NCBI GenBank assembly: GCA_035400625.1
Contig: DAOMZT010000002.1
Location: forward strand, 1-32,000
Source of the DNA: an archaeon
Lineage (GTDB): Archaea > Iainarchaeota > Iainarchaeia > Iainarchaeales > CSSED10-239
DNA length: 32,000 bases
Direction: 5' to 3'
Shown in pieces: positions 5,583 to 23,636 of the stretch. Numbering within the stretch: position 1 is the stretch's first letter; each line of letters opens with the position of its first letter. The notes under the pieces are model-generated. The model did not search any database and was not told the DNA's origin. It saw nothing but the letters and a program-made list of their open reading frames with translations. The translations under genes and the position numbers were made by a program.

Positions 5583-6965
5583 TTAAAGAAAATAAGGAAT
5601 GATATTTAGTAATATTAAAAATACTACTAAATATATAAAGAACCATTTTACTTTTTTCATTCTCTTCTTTTCATTATTCTTTTTATTTAAATAATTACAA
5701 AATATAATCTGGGCCATAAACCCACCATCGAAAGGAATTGTTGGAAGGAAGTTAGTTGTTGCAATCAAGAAATTTAATAATACTATCCATAAAATAACAT
5801 TTAATAATATTTTATAAAATGTATATTTTTTTGGAAGTTCAATGGTTTTATCAACCATTATATCTGCTGATATTCCAATATTTCCTAGTTCGTTTGTTGT
5901 TATATATTCTGTTCTAGTTATGTTGGTGTCTAGATTTCTAACAACAAACTCGTTTTCATAGTCTTTTTTAATGTTTTTTGTGAGATCGTTTCTTGTTTTT
6001 ATGGTGTTGCCATTAACAGATATAAGTAAATCGTTTTTAGCAAGCTTACCATAGGCAGGGTTATCAAAAGAAGAACCACACATCTCTGTTGTAGGGTTTA
6101 CTTGGCTTACAACAAGGCCAATCTCTCTTTGATTATTAATTGAGGTTGTGTAGTTTGTAATTGGTGTGGAAATCAATAAGTAGATTATAACAAAAATAAT
6201 TGCAACAACAAGGTTACTTGTTGGTCCTGCAGAATACATTTTTAGTTTATTTTTATTATCTATTTTTTTGAATTTTTCTTCATCAGGTTCAACATACGCG
6301 CCTAATGGCAATATACCAAATAGTATTGCTCCAATAGACTTTAGTTTTATTTTTGAAACCCTAAGCATTATCCCATGGCTAAACTCATGAATAAATGCAG
6401 CAGGAATTAATATCAACCAGCCATACCATGGAATAGCAAAGTTTGTTTTTGGAACTTTTACTCCAGGAATAACAAGACCAATACCAGGGCAACCAACTTT
6501 TCCAACAAACAGCTTAGCAATAATATCATATGCTGAAAAAATCAAAGCACCTAAAATAAAACCAGACAATCCCATTAGTCCGGTTAAGAAAATTATTATA
6601 TAACTAATGAACTTTGGAATTAGAGGATTTCCGAAAAACAGCCCACCTGCCAATAAATAAGAAAGATAGGTTGTAACCAATAAAGATAAAATAAATATGA
6701 TAACTCTTTTTTTCTTTGTGACTTTTTCTTTAACCAGATAATCTATTCCAAAAGGCCCAAAGCCAACAGCAATACCAAAGATAGACAATGTATTTAATGC
6801 TTTTTTGTATTTCTCTGCTAGTCTGTTAACATGTTTAATTAGGGATTTTGTATCTACTAAAATAAAAACCCATAAAGTTGTTCTTTGCTTAAACACTAAT
6901 CTTGCAAAAGTTGCACAAAAAGCAGCAATAACAAAAACCAAAATTATCCACAAAGTAGTTGACAC
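5583..6965 (-). CDS. Site-2 protease family (M50) membrane metalloprotease with a PDZ-like insert
   Basis: Multi-TM protein with HEFSHG (HExxH) and a distal NFLPTIPFDGG (NxxPxxxxDG) motif. The central soluble segment is PDZ-like. Confidence 0.8.
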   Translation of the reverse strand: MSTTLWIILVFVIAAFCATFARLVFKQRTTLWVFILVDTKSLIKHVNRLAEKYKKALNTLSIFGIAVGFGPFGIDYLVKEKVTKKKRVIIFILSLLVTTYLSYLLAGGLFFGNPLIPKFISYIIIFLTGLMGLSGFILGALIFSAYDIIAKLFVGKVGCPGIGLVIPGVKVPKTNFAIPWYGWLILIPAAFIHEFSHGIMLRVSKIKLKSIGAILFGILPLGAYVEPDEEKFKKIDNKNKLKMYSAGPTSNLVVAIIFVIIYLLISTPITNYTTSINNQREIGLVVSQVNPTTEMCGSSFDNPAYGKLAKNDLLISVNGNTIKTRNDLTKNIKKDYENEFVVRNLDTNITRTEYITTNELGNIGISADIMVDKTIELPKKYTFYKILLNVILWIVLLNFLIATTNFLPTIPFDGGFMAQIIFCNYLNKKNNEKKRMKKVKWFFIYLVVFLILLNIIPYFL

Positions 6966-10234: not shown

Positions 10235-11729
10235 ATTCCAGCTGATCCTGCTGGTGGATATCGCTATTGGAGTTTGACTAAGACATGCAAGTTTGAAAGT
10301 CTTAACTATGAGAGACTTTGGCAAACGGCTCAGTAACGCGTGGTCAACCTACCTTTTTGACAAGTTAATCTTGGGAAACTGAGGATAATGCTTGATAGGA
10401 AAACAAATCTGGAATGATTGTTTTTCCAAAGGTCTTACGATCATGTTTGTAAGATGCAAAAAGATGGGACTGCGTCAGATTAGGTCGTTGGCAGGGTAAT
10501 TGCCTACCAAGCCGAAGATCTGTACGGGCCTTGAGAGAGGGTGCCCGGAGAAGGAAACTGAGATAAGGTTCCTAGCCCTACGGGGTGCAGCAGTCGCGAA
10601 AATTTTACAATGCGGGAAACCGTGATAGAGAGACTCCAAGTGCCAGCAAAAACTGGCTTTTATATAGCTTAGATAGCTATGTGAATAAGGGGGGGGTAAT
10701 ATGCGTGCCAGCCGCCGCGGTAATACGCAATCCTCGAGTGGTATCCAGCATTATTTGGCTTAAAGCGTGTGTAGCTGGTTTATTAAGTCTTTTGTGAAAG
10801 CAGTGAGCCTAACTCATTGAATGGCAAAAGATACTGGTAGGCTAGAAATAGGGAGACGTTTAGGGTATTCCTAGAGTAGGAGTAGAATCTTAAGATACTA
10901 GGAAGACCACCTGTGGCGAAGGCGCTAAACGAGAACTAATTTGACAGTGAGACACGAAAGCTGGGGGCGCAACCCGGATTAGATACCCGGTTAGTCCCAG
11001 CTGTAAACGATGTGAATTAGGTGTTGGGTTAACTACGAGTTAATTCAGGGCCGAAGGGAAACCATTAAATTCACCGCCTGGGGAGTACAGTCGCAAGGCA
11101 GAAACTTAATGGAATTGGCGGGGGTGCACTACAAGGGGTGGATGCTGCGGTTTAATTGGATGAAACGCCAGATATCTTACCAGAACAGACAGCAAGATGA
11201 TGGTCAGTCTGAAGGGCTTACCTGATGCGCTGAGAGGTGCTGTATGGCCGTCGCCAGCTCGTACTGTGAAGCTTCCTGTTAACTCAGGTAACGGGCGAGA
11301 CCCATGCTATTAGTTGCTACTTTTTTTAGTAATAAGGAAAGGCACTCTAATAGGACTGCGTTGGTAACAATGAGGAAGGAATGGGCGAAGGCAGGTCTGT
11401 ATAGCCCGATTGCTCTGGGCAACACGCGGCATACAATGACTAGGACAATGAGTCTCTAACCCGAAAGGGAGTGGCAATCTCAGAAACCTAGCCGAAGTTC
11501 GGATTGAGGGTTGCAACTCACCCTCATGAAGTTGGAATCCCCAGTAATCGCGTGTCACTATCGCGCGGTGAATATGTCCCTGCGCCTTGCACACACCGCC
11601 CATCAAGCCAGTTGAGTAGAGTGTGGATGAACTCTAGCCTATTAAAGGTTAAAGTGATTCTATATTTTGCGAGACGGACTAAGTTGTAACAAGGTGTCCG
11701 TAGGGGAACCTGCGGACGGATCACCTCCT
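10235..11729 (+). rRNA. rrs: 16S (SSU) ribosomal RNA, archaeal type, ~1495 nt
   Basis: 5' ATTCCAGCTGATCCTGCTGG. Also GTGCCAGCCGCCGCGGTAATAC, GGATTAGATACCCGG, GCACACACCGCCCATCA, AAGTTGTAACAAGG. 3' end GGGGAACCTGCGGACGGATCACCTCCT. Confidence 0.95.
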
Positions 11730-11895: not shown

Positions 11896-11967
11896 GGGCT
11901 TCTAGTTCAATGGTAGAATATCTCCTTCGCATGGAGAAGGTTGCGAGTTCGAGTCTCGCGAAGTCCA
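11896..11967 (+). tRNA. tRNA-Ala (anticodon CGC)
   Basis: 72 nt: acceptor GGGCTTC/GAAGTCC with the G3:U70 Ala identity pair, anticodon stem TCTCC/GGAGA with loop TTCGCAT, T arm GCGAG-TTCGAGT-CTCGC. Confidence 0.9.
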
Positions 11968-12009
11968 TATTAACTTAAACTTTGATTTTAATTTCAACAA
12001 TTAGATTTG

Positions 12010-12040
12010 TTTATATTTATTTCTTTAGTTAATTATATTA
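12010..12040 (+). promoter_or_regulatory. Repeated promoter module, copy 2, upstream of tRNA-Ala(AGC)
   Basis: TTTATATTTATTTCTTTAGTTAATTATATTA. Together with the upstream TAGATTTG, it is shared with copy 3. Confidence 0.5.
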
Positions 12041-12042
12041 GA

Positions 12043-12114
12043 GGGCTTCTGGCTCAACGGTAGAGCACTTCCTTAGCAAGGAAGGGGTTGCGAGTTCGAA
12101 TCTCGCGAAGTCCA
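12043..12114 (+). tRNA. tRNA-Ala (anticodon AGC as encoded)
   Basis: 72 nt: acceptor GGGCTTC/GAAGTCC (G3:U70), anticodon stem CTTCC/GGAAG with loop TTAGCAA, giving A34-G35-C36. T arm GCGAG-TTCGAAT-CTCGC. Confidence 0.85.
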
Positions 12115-12141
12115 TTAACTTATATTTAAGAAATAGATTTG

Positions 12142-12170
12142 TTTATATTTATTTCTTTAGTTAATTATTA
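12142..12170 (+). promoter_or_regulatory. Repeated promoter module, copy 3, upstream of tRNA-Ala(UGC)
   Basis: TTTATATTTATTTCTTTAGTTAATTATTA, followed by a 35-nt leader containing the hairpin AGCAAAA..TTTTGCT before the tRNA. Confidence 0.45.
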
Positions 12171-12205
12171 TGGTAATCAAGCAAAAAAACATCTTATTTT
12201 GCTGA

Positions 12206-12277
12206 GGGCTCCTGGCTCAATGGTAGAGTACTTCCCTTGCACGGAAGGGGTTGCGAGTTCGAATCTCGCGGAGTCCA
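12206..12277 (+). tRNA. tRNA-Ala (anticodon UGC)
   Basis: 72 nt: acceptor GGGCTCC/GGAGTCC (G3:U70), anticodon stem CTTCC/GGAAG with loop CTTGCAC, T arm GCGAG-TTCGAAT-CTCGC. Confidence 0.9.
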
Positions 12278-15290: not shown

Positions 15291-16158
15291 TTAAAATGCC
15301 CTTTTGCCTTTTAATAACCCTTCTTGATAAAGTTTAAGTAGATTTTTTCTGTTTGATGAAATTTTAGTTAGTTTTCTAACATTGCCTTCAGGGTAAATTA
15401 TAGTTACATTTGAATATTTTTGTATATCTTCTATTGTGGGTTCTTCAAAGACATGATAGATAGAATGTAAGAAAAAAGGCAAGCCAAAATAAAGAGATTT
15501 AGTAAATAGATTAAGCAAAGCAAATGGGCTGCTTAAAATCTTATTAGCAAGAGTTTTTTTTCTCATTCATGATCCAGATGATCTTTTTATCTCTGTTGTC
15601 TTTAACTACTTCTAGAAACTTGTCGTTAGGTATTTGTTCGCCATCATAAAGATTTTTATATTTGGTTTTAAGAGAGATATAAGGAGCCAGATATGAAGAA
15701 ACTTCTACAATATCTAGGGTATTTTCTTTAGCATTAATAAATAATGGTTTTAGCTGGTTAGTGTCATAGACCTTAACATAGAAATTAATCTTGCTTTTTT
15801 TAATTTCGTCAACATCAAGTTTGTGTTTTATTCTTTCAATTTCTTTAAGTACTTCTAAATCCATTAGCTGTAAGCTTTTTTTATATAATATTAGGTTTTT
15901 TACCTTGTGGAGCATTTCAAAAACATCCATGTTTAGAAATTTAGCTCTTTTTGAGACTAATTGTCTGGTATATACATCTGAAGCCAAGGTAACTTGTTTA
16001 GATAAAAAATAAGCAGCATTATGAGCACCAGCAGAAACGGCATAGATGCTATGGATTCTTGGGTAAACATCTTTCTTATAGAAGGCAGTTAACACACCCG
16101 CAGCAAATACACCGCTCATTGCTCCGCCTTCAATAATTAGTATTGTGTCTCTTTCCAT
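15291..16158 (-). pseudogene. Patatin-like phospholipase split by a +1/-1 frameshift in an A8 run (T8 on the plus strand, 15554..15561)
   Basis: ORF 15544..16158 has EGGAMSGVFAAG (oxyanion GGxxxG), AVSAG (GxSxG-like) and YDGE (catalytic DG). Removing one A from the A8 run joins it in frame to ORF 15291..15566 (..NEKK-TLANKILSS..), giving a ~295-aa patatin-sized protein. Confidence 0.65.
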
Positions 16159-16271: not shown

Positions 16272-17078
16272 ATGTTTAAATTATTTAAATTACGTTTGAA
16301 TAAACCACAAAAACCAAACATAAAATACAAAGATCCAGCTAATAAAAGAGTAAAAGTAGTAAGAACAAGAAAAACCAAAAAATTTGAATTAAAAAGAGTG
16401 GACTATAAATATAATAAAGATGCATATTATTTGTTAAAAAAAGGTGAACACACAATTGCTTTATCAAAAGAAGCAAGAGGGCAATTGAAACGATATCCTG
16501 AAATTGTTAAAGTTGTTGAAAATTTATTGTTTGATAGCAAAACACCGGTTATTGAGAATTCTAAATATAAGATGCATCTAAGCAGATTAAATCCTGACTC
16601 TAATTCAGGTAGGAATAATATTGGAACATATAAATTGAGTTATTTTGATAAAACAACAAATAAACATAGAGAGTATTTTTTAAAATTAGGTAAAAAATAC
16701 GATATTGGAAATTACCCAAGCATTAATGAATTTGAAAGCCAAAAAATATTAGAAGCAGAAGGATTTAATATAATTAGACCACAATTTGCAATTTGGGGAC
16801 CAGGAAATAAGAAATTAAATAGCCCTTTTTACAATATAATAGTATATGATTTTACAAATTTGTTAAATTATGAAACTGCACTAAGAAACAGGTTATTAAC
16901 TAGACAAGAAATTAAACACATAAATCGCAATCTTTCTAAAGCACGATGGTTTGCAGAAAACAAATTAGATGTTACTGATATATCTACGAGAGGTAATGTC
17001 TTTTTAGAAAGATTACCATCTGGTGAAATAAAATTGTATTTTACAGATAGTGCTAAAATTTGGAAAGGCAGAGATTAA
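16272..17078 (+). CDS. hypothetical protein, family A paralog 2 (basic leader plus kinase-like core)
   Basis: Motif blocks REYFLKLG, GFNIIRPQ, IIVYDFT, DISTRGNVF, LYFTDS, collinear with ORFs 1802..2614 and 21610..22407. Confidence 0.6.
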   Translation: MFKLFKLRLNKPQKPNIKYKDPANKRVKVVRTRKTKKFELKRVDYKYNKDAYYLLKKGEHTIALSKEARGQLKRYPEIVKVVENLLFDSKTPVIENSKYKMHLSRLNPDSNSGRNNIGTYKLSYFDKTTNKHREYFLKLGKKYDIGNYPSINEFESQKILEAEGFNIIRPQFAIWGPGNKKLNSPFYNIIVYDFTNLLNYETALRNRLLTRQEIKHINRNLSKARWFAENKLDVTDISTRGNVFLERLPSGEIKLYFTDSAKIWKGRD

Positions 17079-17660: not shown

Positions 17661-17785
17661 CCCTCCTTAGCATAGTGGTTAGTGCGTCCGGCTGTAGACT
17701 TTAGTAACACACTATTTTTGTTATTGTAAGATAGCAAAGAAAGGCAGTGACCGGAAGATCCCCAGTCCGAATCTGGGAGGAGGGA
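17661..17785 (+). tRNA. tRNA-Tyr (anticodon GUA) with a 52-nt canonical 37/38 intron (17698..17749)
   Basis: - Acceptor CCCTCCT/AGGAGGG, giving the archaeal/eukaryal Tyr identity pair C1:G72.
- D arm GCAT-AGTGGTTA-GTGC.
- Anticodon stem TCCGG/CCGGA with loop CTGTAG|intron|A.
- T arm CCCAG-TCCGAAT-CTGGG.
- Splice sites fall in a helix-bulge-helix: CTGT/GCAG central helix, 3-nt bulges, outer helix CTTT/AAAG. Confidence 0.9.
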
Positions 17786-17795
17786 ATCCGACTCC
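17758..17795 (+). repeat. Direct repeat copy 1 (tRNA-Tyr variable loop, T arm and acceptor 3' strand, plus 10 nt of flank)
   Basis: ATCCCCAGTCCGAATCTGGGAGGAGGGAATCCGACTCC. It recurs at 20480..20519 with a 2-nt insertion and 2 substitutions. The perfect core is 24 nt (17765..17788 = 20489..20512). Confidence 0.9.
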
Positions 17796-17892
17796 AAGTT
17801 GGCAGGAATAAGTTACGAGTTTTAAATACACGTATATTTAAAATCTTTACTACTATAATATATTATATATTAAAATTAATGGAGATTTATAT

Positions 17893-17964
17893 ATGAAGAA
17901 AAAAAATAAAAAAGACCCTTTAAAAAAAGGGAAAGTAGAAAGTTTAAAAGACCACTATGATTAA
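17893..17964 (+). CDS. 23-aa short ORF upstream of the radical SAM/SPASM gene (candidate substrate/precursor peptide)
   Basis: My translation: MKKKNKKDPLKKGKVESLKDHYD. GGAG at 17881..17884 sits 8 nt before the ATG. The stop is 20 nt before the rSAM start. Not in the ORF track because it is under 60 aa. Confidence 0.4.
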   Translation: MKKKNKKDPLKKGKVESLKDHYD

Positions 17965-17984
17965 TTCTAAAAATTAGATATATT

Positions 17985-19157
17985 ATGGTATCAAATATAA
18001 AAAGAGTATCTTTTGAGATTACTGGCAAATGTAATTTACACTGTTTTTATTGTTGTAGAGGTTATTTAAATAAAAAAGAAAAAATAGACACTGAAATTTC
18101 TACAACGGAAATAATTAAAATAATACGTGATGCAAGAAAAAAGAAATGTACATCCTTTCTTTTTACTGGCGGAGAGCCATTTGTTAAGAAAGATTTTAAT
18201 TTAATTCTACAAGAATGTAGTGGCTGTTTTGTAGAAGTTTATTCAAATGGCACATTAATCGCAAAGAAAAAAAATATAGAATTAATAAATAAATATATTA
18301 CTAAATTAACAGTTACTATTGATGGATTAGAATCTCACGATTTTTATAGAACAAATAGTAATTCTATTAAAATATTAAAAAACATAAAAAAGATTAAAAA
18401 AAATTGTGATGTACTAATAAAAATTAACACCTTATTAAATAAAAAATCAATAGATGATTTGCTTTGTCTTTATAAAAAATTAAAAGACGTTGGTGTAGAC
18501 GAATGGCACATAGATTTCCCTCAACTTAGAGGCCGACTTGCAGCATATAAAGGCCATTTTGCTGCAGATTATTCAAAAATAGGCATTGCATTAAGAAAAG
18601 TAATTATTGAATATTATAAGGATAAAAAACCATTTTACTTTAAAATATATAAAGTATTTAATTCAAAATTAAATAAAAACACAGCTTATTCAATTAATAT
18701 AAATGAGAACCCTTGTAGTTATAAAATAGACAAATGTATTTTCATTACCTCTGATAAAAAATATATTTTATGCCCATCAATACCAAGTCAAGATATTATT
18801 ATTGGAAAAGTAGATTTAAATAGTTATAACGACATTTTAATTAAAAAAACTAAATTAGATTTTAATAAAATTAAATATAGTGATTTAAAGGAATGTATAA
18901 ATTGTAGATATTTTAAATTGTGTTTAGGGGGGTGTAGAGGCGAAGCAAAGGTGCTTTCTAATTCGTTCATTAAACCAGATTTAAACGCTTGCTCTTTAAT
19001 GCACATTTCTGAAAAAGAAATATATCCATTTTTACCAAATAACATATCTTCTTTTTATATAAAAAGTATTGATTTTTCAAAGAGACACCCGAAATGGTTA
19101 AATAATTTAGATGAATTAAAAACTAAAACACAATTAAAATATAACGATTCTAAATAA
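17985..19157 (+). CDS. Radical SAM enzyme with a C-terminal SPASM (twin auxiliary 4Fe-4S) domain
   Basis: CNLHCFYC (CX3CX2C) at residues 16-23, and FTGGEPF. SPASM cysteines: NPCSYKIDKC, YILCPS, ECINCRYFKLCLGGCRG. Confidence 0.85.
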   Translation: MVSNIKRVSFEITGKCNLHCFYCCRGYLNKKEKIDTEISTTEIIKIIRDARKKKCTSFLFTGGEPFVKKDFNLILQECSGCFVEVYSNGTLIAKKKNIELINKYITKLTVTIDGLESHDFYRTNSNSIKILKNIKKIKKNCDVLIKINTLLNKKSIDDLLCLYKKLKDVGVDEWHIDFPQLRGRLAAYKGHFAADYSKIGIALRKVIIEYYKDKKPFYFKIYKVFNSKLNKNTAYSININENPCSYKIDKCIFITSDKKYILCPSIPSQDIIIGKVDLNSYNDILIKKTKLDFNKIKYSDLKECINCRYFKLCLGGCRGEAKVLSNSFIKPDLNACSLMHISEKEIYPFLPNNISSFYIKSIDFSKRHPKWLNNLDELKTKTQLKYNDSK

Positions 19158-19201
19158 ATGAATTTGTATATCTATTACATAAAATAATAAAAAAGAATAT
19201 T

Positions 19202-20281
19202 ATGAACTTAACAATAGAAGAGAGACTCAAACTTATTAAAGAAGTTGGAGAAGAAATAATTGGAGAAGAAGAATTAATTGAGCTTCTAAAATCCAATAAA
19301 CCTATTATTGCATATGACGGTTTTGAACCATCTGGTAGAATACATATCGCTCAAGGTCTAATGAGAGCAATAAATGTAAATAAACTATCAAAAGCAGGAA
19401 TTCATTTTAAGTTTTTGGTAGCAGATTGGTTTGCATTAATGAATAATAAAATGGACGGAGATTTAGAAAAAATAAAAATAGTTGGAGAATATTTTATTGA
19501 AGTTTGGAAAGCATCAGGAATGGATATGACTAATGTTGAGTTTTTGTGGGCTTCTGAGAATATGAATCAAGATTATTGGTTAATGGTTTTAAAAATTGCA
19601 AGATTAAATTCTGTTGTAAGAATAACAAGATGTTCTCAGATTATGGGTAGAACAGATAAAGAAGAATTAAATGCTGCACAAATATTTTATCCGTGTATGC
19701 AAGCTACAGATATATGGAATTTGAAAGCAGATATTGCTCAACTTGGGATGGACCAAAGAAAAGTAAACGTTCTTGCAAGAGAAACATTTCCAAAGCTTGG
19801 ATTAAAGAAGCCAATAGCTATACATCACCATATGCTTATGGGACTTACAGAACCAAAAATAGATGGGTTAGATGGAGCAGAAGCAACAATAGCAAAAAAG
19901 ATGTCCAAATCAAATCCAGATTCTGCAATATTTATGACTGATACTAAGGAAGAAATCGATAGGAAATTTAAGAAAGCTTATTGTCCTGAGGGAATAGTGA
20001 AAGATAACCCTGTTTTGGAATATTGTAAATATATTATATTCGAAAGAATAAATGAATTTAAAGTAGAAAGGTCCGAAAAATTTGGGGGAAATATTGTGTA
20101 TTATAGCTATGAAAACTTAGAAAAAGATTTTATAGAGAAAAGGCTTCATCCAATGGATTTAAAAGCATCAAGTTCGAAATATATTAATGAATTGTTAGAA
20201 CCTATAAGAAAGCACTTTGAAGAAAATCAAAATGCAAAAAGAATACAATGTATTGTAGAAAGTTATACAATTAAAAAATGA
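19202..20281 (+). CDS. tyrS: Tyrosyl-tRNA synthetase, archaeal type
   Basis: Class I signatures: PSGRIHIAQG (HIGH-like) and KMSKS (KKMSKSNP). Size and architecture match archaeal/eukaryal TyrRS. Confidence 0.9.
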   Translation: MNLTIEERLKLIKEVGEEIIGEEELIELLKSNKPIIAYDGFEPSGRIHIAQGLMRAINVNKLSKAGIHFKFLVADWFALMNNKMDGDLEKIKIVGEYFIEVWKASGMDMTNVEFLWASENMNQDYWLMVLKIARLNSVVRITRCSQIMGRTDKEELNAAQIFYPCMQATDIWNLKADIAQLGMDQRKVNVLARETFPKLGLKKPIAIHHHMLMGLTEPKIDGLDGAEATIAKKMSKSNPDSAIFMTDTKEEIDRKFKKAYCPEGIVKDNPVLEYCKYIIFERINEFKVERSEKFGGNIVYYSYENLEKDFIEKRLHPMDLKASSSKYINELLEPIRKHFEENQNAKRIQCIVESYTIKK

Positions 20282-20359
20282 TTTAAAATATATTTTATTT
20301 TTTTCTTGTGTTTATTATACTTTTATATTTTGGTATTACCTTCCTGTAACCTACATACA

Positions 20360-20473
20360 CTACACAAGCTACACTTTTATAAAAGCTATTAATCATAATA
20401 TTTATATAAACTAAAAGGAGTTGGTAAGAATGAAGGAGAAGTATCCACCAACTTCTAACAACGAACCAATAAC
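20360..20473 (+). repeat. Direct repeat R1 (114 nt): palindromic TATA box, second TATA-like box, hairpin enclosing an SD and ATG, and the first 15 codons of a short ORF
   Basis: Aligns with 21426..21538 at 101 of 114 columns by my hand count (12 substitutions, 1 gap). Contains CTTTTATAAAAG, ATATTTATATAAA, AAAGGAG and ATG at 20430. Confidence 0.9.
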
Positions 20474-20479
20474 CAGTAC

Positions 20480-20519
20480 ATCCCCAATGTCCGAATCTGG
20501 GAGGAGGGAATCTAACTCC
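20480..20519 (+). repeat. Direct repeat copy 2: decayed tRNA-Tyr 3'-end fragment (not a functional tRNA)
   Basis: ATCCCCAATGTCCGAATCTGGGAGGAGGGAATCTAACTCC. The 2-nt insertion destroys the 5' strand of the T stem. No D or anticodon arm lies upstream. Homology ends at the stop codon of the convergent DUF429 gene. Confidence 0.85.
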
Positions 20520-21322
20520 TACTTATATTCAAAAATAGTTTTTTGAGATAAAATTGTTTTTAGTTCTTTTTTTTGATAATCAAATACAGGCGTTAAAATA
20601 TAACCACTTTTTAAATCGCCTAATACTTCACAATTATTTGGTTTCGCCCAAACATAATAAGAAAGATATGCACAAAATATTCCATCTAATGTGTCTTCAT
20701 AATCTTTAAGTTTTTGTGCTTTTAATGAGTTTAAATCTACTGATAAAATTTCTTTAGATAAGATTAATGATGGATTACTTTTTTCTAAATTTTTTAATGC
20801 ATCAATATATTTTCTAAATTCAATATACCTAAATTCATAATCTCTTTTTGGTTTAGATTTATATTTTAATATTTTTTTTAAATTAAATAAAACTACCATA
20901 GATGGATGTGGATAAACTTCAAAAAACTTCTTTGATTCTTCAAATTGATTAATATAAGGGTCTTGTTTAAATCCTTCTTTTTCTAAAACCTTAGAAATTT
21001 CTTCTCCTCTTATTGTACCAGTCCAAAGACTTAATCTTTGTCTATTTGATGGATGTGCTCCTGCATCAAATTGTCTAAATAATTTTCCAGTTAATTCTTC
21101 TGGTATTCTTCTTCCAGTTTCATTAGGGACTATAAGTGGTGCATCAATTGCAATTAATGCTGGTTTATTTTTTGTGTGTTTTTTAATATAATTTATAATT
21201 TCTTCATTAGACATTAAACTATCAGCACAAATTAATTTTGCTTGTTTTTTATTACCTTCTAATATGGCTACACCAGATCCGTTTTTTGTAGACCAAGCAA
21301 GGTCAATTCCTACGAAATACAT
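20519..21322 (-). CDS. DUF429-like predicted RNase H-fold nuclease
   Basis: N-terminal FVGIDLAWS..NGSGVAIL, then LIAIDAPLIVPNETGRR, EVYPHPS, YK.KP.R and YEDTLDGIFCAYLS. Together these match the pattern I recall for DUF429 proteins. Confidence 0.55.
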   Translation of the reverse strand: MYFVGIDLAWSTKNGSGVAILEGNKKQAKLICADSLMSNEEIINYIKKHTKNKPALIAIDAPLIVPNETGRRIPEELTGKLFRQFDAGAHPSNRQRLSLWTGTIRGEEISKVLEKEGFKQDPYINQFEESKKFFEVYPHPSMVVLFNLKKILKYKSKPKRDYEFRYIEFRKYIDALKNLEKSNPSLILSKEILSVDLNSLKAQKLKDYEDTLDGIFCAYLSYYVWAKPNNCEVLGDLKSGYILTPVFDYQKKELKTILSQKTIFEYK

Positions 21323-21425
21323 ATAATATCATTATTTTTTATTTTATATTACTCAAAAATAACTATATATCCAAATATTAAAAAAGGTTTCTTAATGCCG
21401 ATTTATATATTATAGCATACACCCC

Positions 21426-21538
21426 CTACATAAGTTACACTTTTATAAAAGCTATCAATCAAAATATTTGTATAACCTAAAGGTGTTGATAAGAATGAAG
21501 GAGATGTATCTATCAACTTCTAACAATGAACCAATAAC
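21426..21538 (+). repeat. Direct repeat R2 (113 nt), second copy of the promoter/hairpin/short-ORF module
   Basis: See R1. Here the module leads into short ORF 21495..21593 and then family A paralog 3. Confidence 0.9.
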
Positions 21539-21593
21539 TCCAAATGCGAAAAGACTATTTTTGAATATGTTTATATTTTTTTGTGTAATTTAG
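21495..21593 (+). CDS. Possible upstream/leader ORF (32 aa) preceding family A paralog 3
   Basis: MKEMYLSTSNNEPITPNAKRLFLNMFIFFCVI. The first 15 codons are shared with the R1 copy (MKEKYPPTSNNEPIT). It ends 16 nt before ATG 21610. The coding status is uncertain. Confidence 0.25.
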   Translation: MKEMYLSTSNNEPITPNAKRLFLNMFIFFCVI

Positions 21594-21609
21594 TTATTTA
21601 TGATGTGAT

Positions 21610-22486: not shown

Positions 22487-22675
22487 AAATTTGATTATTT
22501 CTATAGTCCCTAAAATTTACCTGGCTGTTATTCAACAGGAGATACTGTAGAAGAATTAATTACAAATATGAAAGAAGCTATTTCTTTGTATGTAGAAGTT
22601 AAAATTATAAGATTTAAAAAATATTGTGCTTTTTTTGTATTACTCACAACCATGTATTACTCGATACTTTTTTAA
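22487..22675 (+). pseudogene. HicB/UPF0150-like antitoxin remnant (no start codon, in-frame TAA)
   Basis: The frame reads KFDYFYSP*NLPGCYSTGDTVEELITNMKEAISLYVEV. The LPGC.S.G.T.EE....EAI core is the HicB-family signature. The N-terminal half is missing and a TAA interrupts it at 22511..22513. Confidence 0.45.
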
Positions 22676-22694
22676 ATATTATGAGTAATACAAA
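22634..22694. promoter_or_regulatory. 13-bp perfect inverted repeat (plus one direct half-site) immediately upstream of fic
   Basis: TTTGTATTACTCA (22634..22646) and TGAGTAATACAAA (22682..22694) are exact reverse complements. A third half-site, TGTATTACTCG, is at 22653..22663. The right arm ends 6 nt before the fic ATG. Confidence 0.45.
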
Positions 22695-22700
22695 TATATT

Positions 22701-23636
22701 ATGAGCTATTTATCTAAACTTAAAAGAAATGGAAAAACCTATTATTACCTTGTAGAGAACATTTCTGTTTCAAAGGGAAAGAGAAAGCAGATTAGAAAGT
22801 ATATTGGAACAACAAAACCTACTGAAAAACAATTATCCTTACAATTATCTAAATTTGAAAAAGAAATTGAATCTAAAAGAAAGAAAATACAAGGATTTGA
22901 GTATTTAACAAGAGATGAAATTAAAGAAATAGATTCTATAAATGCAAACTTTTGGAAAAAATATAATGCTTTAACAAAAACAGAAAAAAAAGGTTTTTGG
23001 AATAATTTCATTAATGTCTTTGTATATAATACTAATTCTATTGAAGGCTCAACATTAACCATAAAAGAAGTTGAATTGCTATTATCTGAAAACATATCTC
23101 CAAATAGACCTTTAGAAGATGTATTAGAAACAAAATCTGCAAAAAAAGCAATTGATTATATTTTAGGATATAAAGGAGACTTATCTATCGATTTAATTAC
23201 AGAATTACATAAAATTTATTTTAAAGAAAGCTTTCCAGATATTGCAGGAAAATTAAAAAGATTAAACAATAGAATAATCGGTTCTAAGTTTGATACAACA
23301 CCAAAAGAATTGGTCTTAACCGATTTAAAGATATTTATAGAAAACTATAATAAACTTAAAAAAAAACTACATCCAATAGAACTTTCAGCATGGGCACATT
23401 GGGCTTTTGTAAAGATACATCCTTTTCAGGATGGGAACGGAAGAATATCAAGATTAATAATGAATTTTATTCTTCATAAAAACAAATATGCATTAATTGA
23501 CATTAAGACAAAAGAAAAGCAAGCATATTTTAATGCACTTGAAAGATGTAATTATATTAATAATGGAAAACCATTGGCACAAAGACTAGTTAGAAGATTC
23601 AAAAAACAATATTTAAATATTTTTTCTGAATTATAA
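22701..23636 (+). CDS. fic: Fic-domain protein (AMPylase family) with an N-terminal auto-inhibitory motif
   Basis: Fic motif HPFQDGNGRISR. The upstream TNSIEG fits the (S/T)xxxE(G/N) inhibitory helix motif of class II Fic proteins. Confidence 0.85.
   Translation: MSYLSKLKRNGKTYYYLVENISVSKGKRKQIRKYIGTTKPTEKQLSLQLSKFEKEIESKRKKIQGFEYLTRDEIKEIDSINANFWKKYNALTKTEKKGFWNNFINVFVYNTNSIEGSTLTIKEVELLLSENISPNRPLEDVLETKSAKKAIDYILGYKGDLSIDLITELHKIYFKESFPDIAGKLKRLNNRIIGSKFDTTPKELVLTDLKIFIENYNKLKKKLHPIELSAWAHWAFVKIHPFQDGNGRISRLIMNFILHKNKYALIDIKTKEKQAYFNALERCNYINNGKPLAQRLVRRFKKQYLNIFSEL

Follow-up and report, generated by a model that had tools for sequence, protein, structure and literature searches.

The 3' end of an archaeal tRNA-Tyr gene recurs, as a partial copy, 2.7 kb downstream of the gene itself, and the segment bracketed in this way carries tyrS, the gene for the cognate aminoacyl-tRNA synthetase. 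The locus lies in a 32,000-nucleotide (nt) stretch of AT-rich archaeal DNA (29% GC; contig DAOMZT010000002.1), which is referred to here as the window. Downstream of the tRNA gene come a 23-codon open reading frame (ORF23), a gene for a radical SAM/SPASM-type enzyme, tyrS, a short conserved module (X_A) that contains the partial tRNA copy, a convergent DUF429 gene, and a second module (X_B) resembling the first (Table 1). An earlier note on this DNA had read the repeat as the footprint of site-specific integration into the tRNA gene or, alternatively, as the product of a local segmental rearrangement. Here, we describe an analysis of this locus and of its alleles in sibling contigs. We present evidence that the copy is probably the right attachment site (attR) of a family of mobile elements whose integrase gene is split by integration, and that the module around it would be the promoter and first codons of that gene.

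Run with its intron search, ARAGORN folds the tRNA-Tyr gene into a complete cloverleaf that has the archaeal-type C1-G72 pair and a canonical intron of 52 nt (17698..17749); the gene escaped the default ARAGORN run and Rfam. A 24-nt core shared with the downstream copy, GTCCGAATCTGGGAGGAGGGAATC, is present exactly twice in the window (17765-17788 and 20489-20512), even with three mismatches allowed, and had no match in 100 dinucleotide-preserving shuffles. Local alignment places the left limit of the homology at 17750 and 20472, the former being the first base of the tRNA 3' exon, with weaker similarity running on into the end of the intron and rightward to 17800 and 20524. The second copy differs by an AT insertion (20487-20488) and by a change of CG to TA in the flank (20513-20514). 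The repeat that the earlier note described, with its 2-nt insertion and two flank substitutions, is therefore real and wider than it had stated, comprising the whole 3' exon plus flank, and it does fade where the DUF429 frame ends. As at an integration junction, a direct repeat of the 3' part of the tRNA brackets the segment and leaves the tRNA cloverleaf intact.

The copy sits in a module of about 170 nt with a TATA-like box, a hairpin and an ATG-led ORF. The ~130 nt immediately upstream of the copy (20347-20473) are repeated at 21413-21538 with 84-88% identity, and these two stretches define X_A and X_B. The TATA-like box of X_A (TTTTATAAAAG) lies at 20375-20385; the hairpin, with stems at 20417-20425 and 20447-20455 (GGAGTTGGT...ACCAACTTC), holds the ATG in its loop, beginning in the leader and reaching into the ORF. 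This ORF passes through the tRNA-like segment (MKEKYPPTSNNEPITSTSPMSESGRRESNSYLYSKIVF*), its translation being MKEKYPPTSNNEPITSTSPMSESGRRE up to the end of the core and SNSYLYSKIVF beyond it, and both X ORFs begin with MKE[KM]Y..TSNNEPIT. Conservation of the module extends over seven copies in at least four genomes, and it always stands last ahead of the att core, where an element or module has its right end.

Two simpler readings of the module were tried and rejected. A small-protein gene (the 38-residue X ORF) does not fit, its conservation extending only to the att core and the sequence beyond varying with every flank. Nor was an RNA gene found, since folds of 20405-20530 and 21470-21600 were no better than those of shuffles and no Rfam family matched. 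The 9-bp hairpin itself (20417-20455, and 21482-21520 in X_B) pairs a Shine-Dalgarno-like GGAG with codons 6-9 of the ORF; in X_B one G-C pair has become A-T on both sides and one pair is broken. Such a hairpin may control translation of the integrase. Additionally, the last ~18 nt of X (TAACAACGAACCAATAAC; window 20456-20471) weakly resemble the 3' ends of tRNA-Tyr introns, as at window 17732-17749 (TAGCAAAGAAAGGCAGTG) and at 5990-6040 of sibling contig L124 (TTCAAATAACAGTG). Because of this resemblance, the sequence suggests that the attachment site of the element (attP) was copied from an intron-containing tRNA-Tyr gene.

Sibling contigs (numbered with the prefix L) were recovered by exact-protein look-ups. 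Proteins of the window occur with identical sequence in contig JAKQTP010000212.1 of assembly GCA_029563035.1 and in many metagenome contigs, and a survey for the identical tyrosyl-tRNA synthetase (TyrRS) covered 24 contigs (24 of 41 index blocks; NCBI, ENA, JGI and Logan) showing ten distinct places. All ten, whether encoding the exact TyrRS or its one close variant, have the layout of the window, and contigs fetched through the DUF429 protein have the same arrangement; the repeat arrangement is not an assembly artefact.

Allele contigs 98-99% identical to the window in their flanks reveal four states of the slot behind tRNA-Tyr. The window type (a), found in the ten distinct places, reads DUF2666, tRNA-Tyr, ORF23, the radical SAM gene, tyrS, X_A with the copy, DUF429 on the minus strand, X_B, orf265, Fic and pyruvate kinase. 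The second (b; L092/L093) has no insert: tRNA-Tyr is followed by 11 nt and then by the window sequence from 21546 onward, which L093 rejoins just past X_B, so that the radical SAM gene, tyrS, the copy, DUF429 and X_B are all missing, and a DUF3419 gene stands in the place of Fic. In the third (c; L096), a 329-residue tyrosine integrase gene begins 20 nt past tRNA-Tyr, with unrelated genes after it. In the fourth (d; L109 and L083, one contig), an element of 15 genes and about 10.9 kb fills the exact slot of ORF23, the radical SAM gene and tyrS, and beyond it X with the partial copy, then DUF429, lead into the gene order known from the window; its genes encode a 330-residue integrase, a helix-turn-helix protein, a type IIG restriction-modification enzyme, a DUF5655 protein, an Avd-like protein and others. 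The tRNA-Tyr gene upstream of the integrase in L096 and L109 is identical to that of the window. Occupied and empty alleles are thus found in the same species, as expected of tRNA-targeted junctions, which bears out the integration slot that the earlier note proposed at tRNA-Tyr. The empty site it predicted, in which DUF429 would come straight after tRNA-Tyr, did not turn up; DUF429 is missing from the empty allele too.

Several features of the ~10.9-kb element (L109 5686-16236; also L108, L110, L111 and L128) were noted in passing. Its restriction-modification genes vary, with the type IIG enzyme in L109 and L128 and a type III-like methylase plus a helicase/nuclease in L108, L110 and L111, while the rest of the backbone is conserved. 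An Avd-like gene (PF22296) is present in all copies of the element, and no reverse transcriptase was seen with it. The GC content of the element equals that of the host.

Comparison of L083 with the window locates the junction. The X module and the left part of the copy are ~8-10% divergent, the divergence ends inside the T-loop/core, and the sequences to the right of the core are 99% identical. Since an element-derived arm that diverges passes, through a crossover core, into a near-identical host flank, we identify 20472..20524 as attR. In L109, L113 and L128, elements with an integrase end on the right in the same partial copy, the left part of which differs from the tRNA identically in several genomes, the AT insertion included. 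What the earlier note took for decay of a tRNA copy would accordingly be the sequence of the element's attP arm, in frame inside a coding sequence. The table of junctions gives the two ends distinct flanks, every occupied left site (attL) being followed by [AT]T[CAG]CACTCGAAAGAGTTCTTTGTTAGAAGT, which belongs to the integrase gene's C-terminal portion (Int(C)), and every attR by ATCYRACTCC. Behind the tRNA in the window, the flank (ATCCGACTCCAAGTTGG) has the character of those that lie right of attR sites (compare ATCCAACTCCAAGTTGAC in L113/L115) and not that of the integrase-coding flanks of occupied attL sites (CACTCGAAAG).

An integrase gene can be reconstructed by joining the two ends. In L109 the X ORF (ATG at 16352), continued via the core CTGGGAGGAGGGA into the sequence that follows the tRNA, is an open frame of 364 residues (MKGKYLPTSNNEPITRSSPMSKSGRRDYTRKSSLLEVCNVSGPDDIY...), and fusion of the window's X_A to Int(C) of L109 likewise gives an open frame of 364. 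In L128, a third complete element, from a different species, and also in L129, the frame is 361 residues long, the N-terminal part (Int(N)) having a frame-keeping 3-nt deletion; the reconstruction rests on two distinct Int(N) variants, that of L109 and the identical stub of L128/L129. Because the X ORF, the core and Int(C) form one uninterrupted frame, the attachment site appears to lie inside the integrase gene and integration to partition it into Int(N) and Int(C), as in SSV-type elements. As called by gene finders, Int(C) has a TTG start 20 nt past the tRNA, and there is no ATG before the conserved core-binding domain. A tblastn search of the window with the reconstructed integrase gave only two significant matches, 20430-20510 in X_A and 21495-21539 in X_B; the window thus holds N-terminal stubs of the integrase and no complete recombinase. 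The earlier note's statement that no integrase is present is right for Int(C), whose ~335 codons are missing, and wrong for the copy itself, which is embedded in the integrase promoter and the first 27 codons.

Between species, identity of the integrase stands at 92.8%, versus 75-88% for the host flanks, which speaks for mobility. Members of the family stand beside tRNA-Tyr in other genera as well (L111/L110 and L124), and the integrase ORF called in L124 stays open across the tRNA 3' exon. Upstream of the integrase in L110 (15-126) and L111 (9871-9982), the ARAGORN intron search reports a tRNA-Asn(GTT) with a shifted intron. This label was rejected, as the anticodon loop CTGTAGA, read by eye, is that of an intron-containing tRNA-Tyr. 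The N-terminus of protein P0138, considered as an intact Int(N), turned out to be the translated tRNA-Tyr intron in the integrated state.

The enzyme matches PF00589 at 76.9 bits, with an additional weak match to PF13495, and does not match PF16795 even at E<=10. Among NCBIfam models the best is that of archaeal XerA (NF040815), at 91.9 bits against a cut-off of 220; this score, and the position of the gene at the end of a strain-variable element, set it apart from the XerA equivalog. The best sequence matches among solved structures are the XerA entries 4a8e and 5hxy, and the SSV1 integrase is not among such matches at E<=1. An AlphaFold model (predicted local distance difference test score, pLDDT, 75) matches XerA, XerH, Cre and lambda Int, with XerA and XerH as the best, and the SSV1 integrase is outside its top 50 fold matches. 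Judged by sequence and modelled fold, the enzyme is Xer-like. A 2021 review (PMC8371274) assigns all known integrases termed suicidal (SSV, pTN3-like and pT26-2-like) to one PF16795 clade of single recent origin, from Sulfolobales, Thermococcales, Archaeoglobales and a few Methanosarcinales, mostly hyperthermophiles. On its PF00589 and XerA matches and the lack of a PF16795 match, we file the present enzyme as one that would work like a suicidal integrase and that is not a member of the known suicidal family.

We put at about 0.8 the probability that 20352-20524 is the attR of a family of elements with a self-splitting integrase, targeting the tRNA-Tyr 3' exon of AT-rich, DPANN-like archaea. 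The integrase gene of such an element would start ~60 nt before the att core, read through the imitation of the tRNA 3' exon, and continue for ~335 further codons, with X as its promoter. Crossover with the tRNA would take place inside the ~16-24-nt core and, because attP lies within the integrase gene, would split it. After integration, Int(C) would be left directly behind the intact tRNA, without promoter or ATG, and the promoter, leader hairpin and 27-codon Int(N) would be left at the far end beside the partial tRNA copy. The window would retain only the Int(N)/attR end, together with a more decayed one at 21413-21545.

Several observations weigh against this reading. No unsplit (episomal) integrase gene was present in any collection searched, and thus the full-length gene is a reconstruction; searches of viral contigs with the X pattern and the integrase gave no match, a scan of metagenomes with the X pattern found only three loci, and a protein search with the junction peptide returned nothing. 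With an Int(N) of only 27 codons, Int(C) alone might be active if read-through from the tRNA promoter led to its expression from the TTG start. Furthermore, the tRNA flank of the window has no trace of Int(C), and the 2.7-kb segment need not be a decayed autonomous element. Finally, tyrS bears no compositional sign of foreign origin and the radical SAM gene is no more than one of the most AT-rich in the window, and neither a circular junction nor another location of the ORF23-radical SAM-tyrS segment was found in the contigs of the TyrRS survey.

The shortness of Int(N) also favours a more conventional explanation, namely that the enzyme is a classical integrase of the pNOB8/lambda type with attP merely beside its gene, X being an unrelated feature of the terminus, for instance a small-RNA or peptide promoter or an arm-type binding region, and the open frame a coincidence. 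The stretch TATCCACCAACTTCTAACAAYGAACCAATAAC of X is conserved even at third codon positions, which fits a constraint at the DNA or RNA level, and classical integrases are Xer-like as this enzyme is. We nevertheless regard this explanation as unlikely. Int(C) begins 20 nt past the tRNA without ATG or promoter, and the matched frame is open in both Int(N) variants (364 and 361 residues). Among the seven X copies the sole 1-nt indel lies upstream of the ATG, and the indel inside the ORF is of 3 nt. A stop-free junction arose in 4.5% of shuffles which, multiplied by one third for the match of frame, leaves a chance of ~1.5% per element.

The payload of the bracketed segment has to be weighed separately. 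By its score against NF006330, tyrS is a bona fide archaeal TyrRS gene. Its GC content, GC content at third codon positions and relative synonymous codon usage (RSCU) distance are ordinary for the window, where its codon usage is the most typical; the radical SAM gene is among the most AT-rich of the window (GC 0.237), with an RSCU distance of 1.063, above average. The composition and codon-usage comparison that the earlier note suggested could be made and proved non-discriminating, tyrS being ordinary, the radical SAM gene AT-rich, and the element sharing the GC content of its host. The radical SAM enzyme falls under the cut-off of every NCBIfam equivalog. Directly ahead of its gene, ORF23 is lysine-rich and ends in DHYD, and the layout of the two resembles a peptide-maturase pair.

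In the slot, tyrS is absent from L092/L093, L096 and L109, that is, from all three other allele types. The 90% TyrRS cluster holds only window-type copies and fragments. The closest relative (91% at the protein level, 89% for the gene) is in L116, on 2-kb contigs with unrelated neighbours, where nucleotide homology to the window is confined to 19199-20330; a relative at 84% belongs to a different genome, in which tyrS stands beside the gene of a class I (Glu/Gln-type, tRNA-synt_1c) aminoacyl-tRNA synthetase. In none of 40 tabulated loci from GTDB species representatives (80 fetched; at most 84% identity) was tRNA-Tyr, the radical SAM gene or DUF429 near tyrS, and these loci, being too distant, yield no empty site.

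With these data we give about even odds to the proposal that the 2.7-kb segment came in, or was kept, as an att-bounded module without an integrase. It might have begun as a cassette that a helper integrase moved in trans, be all that is left of a decayed element, or consist of flanking host DNA caught when excision went wrong in a donor that had these genes beside tRNA-Tyr. Once in place, attL and attR, with their 24 identical nt, could serve as substrates for recombination by an incoming (superinfecting) element. A competing account would have tRNA-Tyr, ORF23, the radical SAM gene and tyrS as native chromosome, with X_A and the copy as the orphan right end of an old element and the bracket not the source of tyrS. 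The non-integrase type of the tRNA flank and the typical codon usage of tyrS suit such an account, as does the finding that the closest tyrS relatives (84-91% identity) are sister lineages. Those lineages, however, keep tyrS elsewhere, and integration into a tRNA gene always leaves the right end downstream of element DNA. The L109 and L093 alleles of the same species lack the segment, L109 with an element in its exact place, and deletions turning the window type into those alleles would remove tyrS. The native-chromosome account consequently receives little credence from us.

Two further possibilities have fared worse. A local segmental duplication or rearrangement that copied the tRNA 3' end, with no mobile element, would agree with the lack of a complete recombinase in the window; this alternative of the earlier note finds no support in the slot, which within one species is variously occupied and empty, or in the copy, which ends integrase-bearing elements in three contigs and deviates from the tRNA alike, AT insertion included, in several genomes, and we consider it very improbable. 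Equally hard to credit is a split-tRNA 3' half or alternative 3' exon with its own promoter, trans-joined to a 5' half. In its favour are the start of the homology exactly at base 1 of the 3' exon, the upstream TATA-like box, and the existence of split tRNAs in archaea and of tRNA fragments scattered by mobile elements (PMC3293823). Against it, the insertion breaks the T stem, the anticodon-stem strand CCGGA has become CCAGT, no 5' half with CCCTCCT was found other than in the tRNA-Tyr gene, the variants differ without compensation, the fold is unexceptional against shuffles (z = -0.66), and neither Rfam nor ARAGORN matches the copy.

The preferred reading, a self-splitting integrase with attR in X_A, extends to the region further downstream. 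Module 1 consists of ORF23, the radical SAM gene, tyrS and X_A; module 2 of DUF429 and X_B, an older integrase promoter and stub; and orf265, a hicB-like remnant and Fic follow. Because short X-ended modules occur also in related genomes, the region downstream of tRNA-Tyr is, from its sequence, an array of att-bounded modules. L115 runs from the end of an element through a first X, genes for an NYN protein and an S51 peptidase, a second X and Fic to the remnant of a third X. The 2.7-kb segment has the properties of a non-autonomous cassette, with att sequences at both ends, no recombinase of its own, and parallel modules in L115. The hicB-like antitoxin remnant (NLPGCYSTGDTVEELITNMKEAISLYVEVKI...) upstream of Fic is given by gene callers as a 41-residue minus-strand ORF at 22528-22653, and an intact hicB-like gene follows attR in L128. 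More tentatively, and in our estimate rather doubtfully, a Xer-like PF00589 lineage of self-splitting integrases would have evolved independently in DPANN-like archaea and built integron-like arrays at tRNA-Tyr from trans-movable, integrase-less cassettes with promoter, Int(N) and att ends, one of them carrying what is possibly the strain's only tyrS.

Table 1. Features of the tRNA-Tyr locus and of its surroundings in the window
Feature	Position	Strand	Basis or remark
tRNA-Tyr(GTA), integration target (attB)	17661..17785	+	ARAGORN with intron search
tRNA-side att repeat, whole 3' exon and ~15 nt of flank	17750..17800	+	exact core 17765-17788
ORF23, 23 codons (MKKKNKKDPLKKGKVESLKDHYD)	17893..17964	+	ORF list
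Radical SAM/SPASM-type enzyme	17985..19157	+	PF04055 match
tyrS, archaeal-type tyrosine-tRNA ligase	19202..20281	+	NF006330, 383.7 bits against a cut-off of 220
X_A, putative promoter and 5' leader of split integrase gene	20352..20429	+	
Int(N) stub, putative: ATG, 27 integrase codons to core end 20510, 11 read-through codons, stop	20430..20546	+	
attR, probable attP-derived imitation of tRNA-Tyr 3' exon, with flank	20472..20524	+	core 20489-20512
DUF429 gene, sole gene of module 2	20519..21322	-	PF04250; absent from L092/L093
X_B, putative older integrase promoter and Int(N) stub (ATG 21495), tRNA-like core lost	21413..21545	+	
5'-truncated hicB-like remnant (~22512-22670) and Fic gene (22701-23636)	22512..23636	+	strain-variable; DUF3419 gene instead in L092/L093
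Archaeal 16S rRNA	10235-11729		Rfam

Some further features of the window and its siblings were noted. Behind the 16S rRNA gene, tRNA-Ala genes with the anticodons CGC, AGC and TGC stand in tandem at 11896-12277; of these three, AGC is unusual in archaea, and no 23S rRNA was seen within the window. L092/L093 have an extra gene for a 310-residue methyltransferase (1804-2777; PF05175, PF13847) between tRNA-Glu and the 16S rRNA gene, absent from the window (junction 9898/9946). A patatin-like gene at 15291-16158 (minus strand) is split in the window into ORFs of 204 and 91 residues and unbroken, at 288 residues, in L085, L088, L090 and L095; the split would be either a frameshift polymorphism or an assembly error.

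Parts of this arrangement have counterparts in well-known systems. Streptococcal integrative and conjugative elements accumulate by tandem accretion, with cis-mobilizable elements (CIMEs), integrase-less att-bounded segments, beside one target gene. The arrays described here are likewise integrase-less, att-bounded and gathered at one target, and the integrase of a related element could move them; unlike CIMEs, the modules carry an integrase promoter and 5' end as their right end, and their mobilisation in trans is conjectural. Integrons hold arrays of cassettes at one locus, with a resident integrase and attI/attC sites. Modules of one to three genes, each with a recombination site, are common to both (in the window, and in L115 with its NYN and S51 peptidase genes and its Fic), whereas the array at tRNA-Tyr lacks both a resident integrase and attI/attC structure, has tRNA-derived sites and is anchored on a functional tRNA gene. 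In the lambda dgal and dbio phages, flanking host genes are picked up in the manner of specialised transduction. A helper-dependent defective element of this kind, with one att-proximal end and adjacent host genes, would give just the layout of the window, in which the tRNA, a host-type flank, the genes, and X with the copy follow one another, but no donor arrangement or excised form was found among the contigs.

Archaeal precedents are closer. Suicidal type I integrases are known from SSV1/SSV2, pTN3 and pT26-2 (Badel et al. 2020, PMC7253208; PMC8371274); She et al. 2001, as cited in PMC8371274, treated 'gene capture in archaeal chromosomes'. In SSV-type elements, too, attP lies in the integrase ORF, Int(N) and Int(C) are parted to opposite ends when the element enters a tRNA gene in its 3' part, and genes can stay trapped between att sites. 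Their excision requires an intact integrase from another element, and we propose the same dependence for the elements at tRNA-Tyr. They differ from these in that the present enzyme is a PF00589 protein resembling XerA/XerH, that its Int(N) comprises only 27 codons, and that the hosts are AT-rich and DPANN-like. In Caldiarchaeum subterraneum, scattering of 5' tRNA fragments, intron gain and a putative transposable element have been described (PMC3293823). There, as here, a partial tRNA copy lies a few kb from an intact intron-containing gene and the population is heterogeneous at the locus; the fragment in the window, in contrast, is an imitation of a 3' exon within an integrase ORF. The scar itself is a known kind of feature; what sets this case apart is the family of the enzyme, the group of hosts, and tyrS as payload.

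If the self-splitting reading is true, this design of integrase arose more than once or is far more widespread than believed. The family targets tRNA-Tyr in several genera of small, AT-rich archaea. For annotation, the self-splitting reading would mean that an integrase gene's missing 5' end can be found in a short 'decayed tRNA copy' with a promoter-like leader, and that gene callers give such integrases TTG starts just past the tRNA. Within one species, the same slot holds an element with restriction-modification genes, nothing, or an essential-looking aminoacyl-tRNA synthetase, which bears on the reshuffling of core genes in reduced genomes. Should the tentative proposal of trans-movable cassettes hold as well, tyrS, an essential translation gene, would be a strain-variable and potentially excisable passenger, cognate to the very tRNA whose gene is the target.

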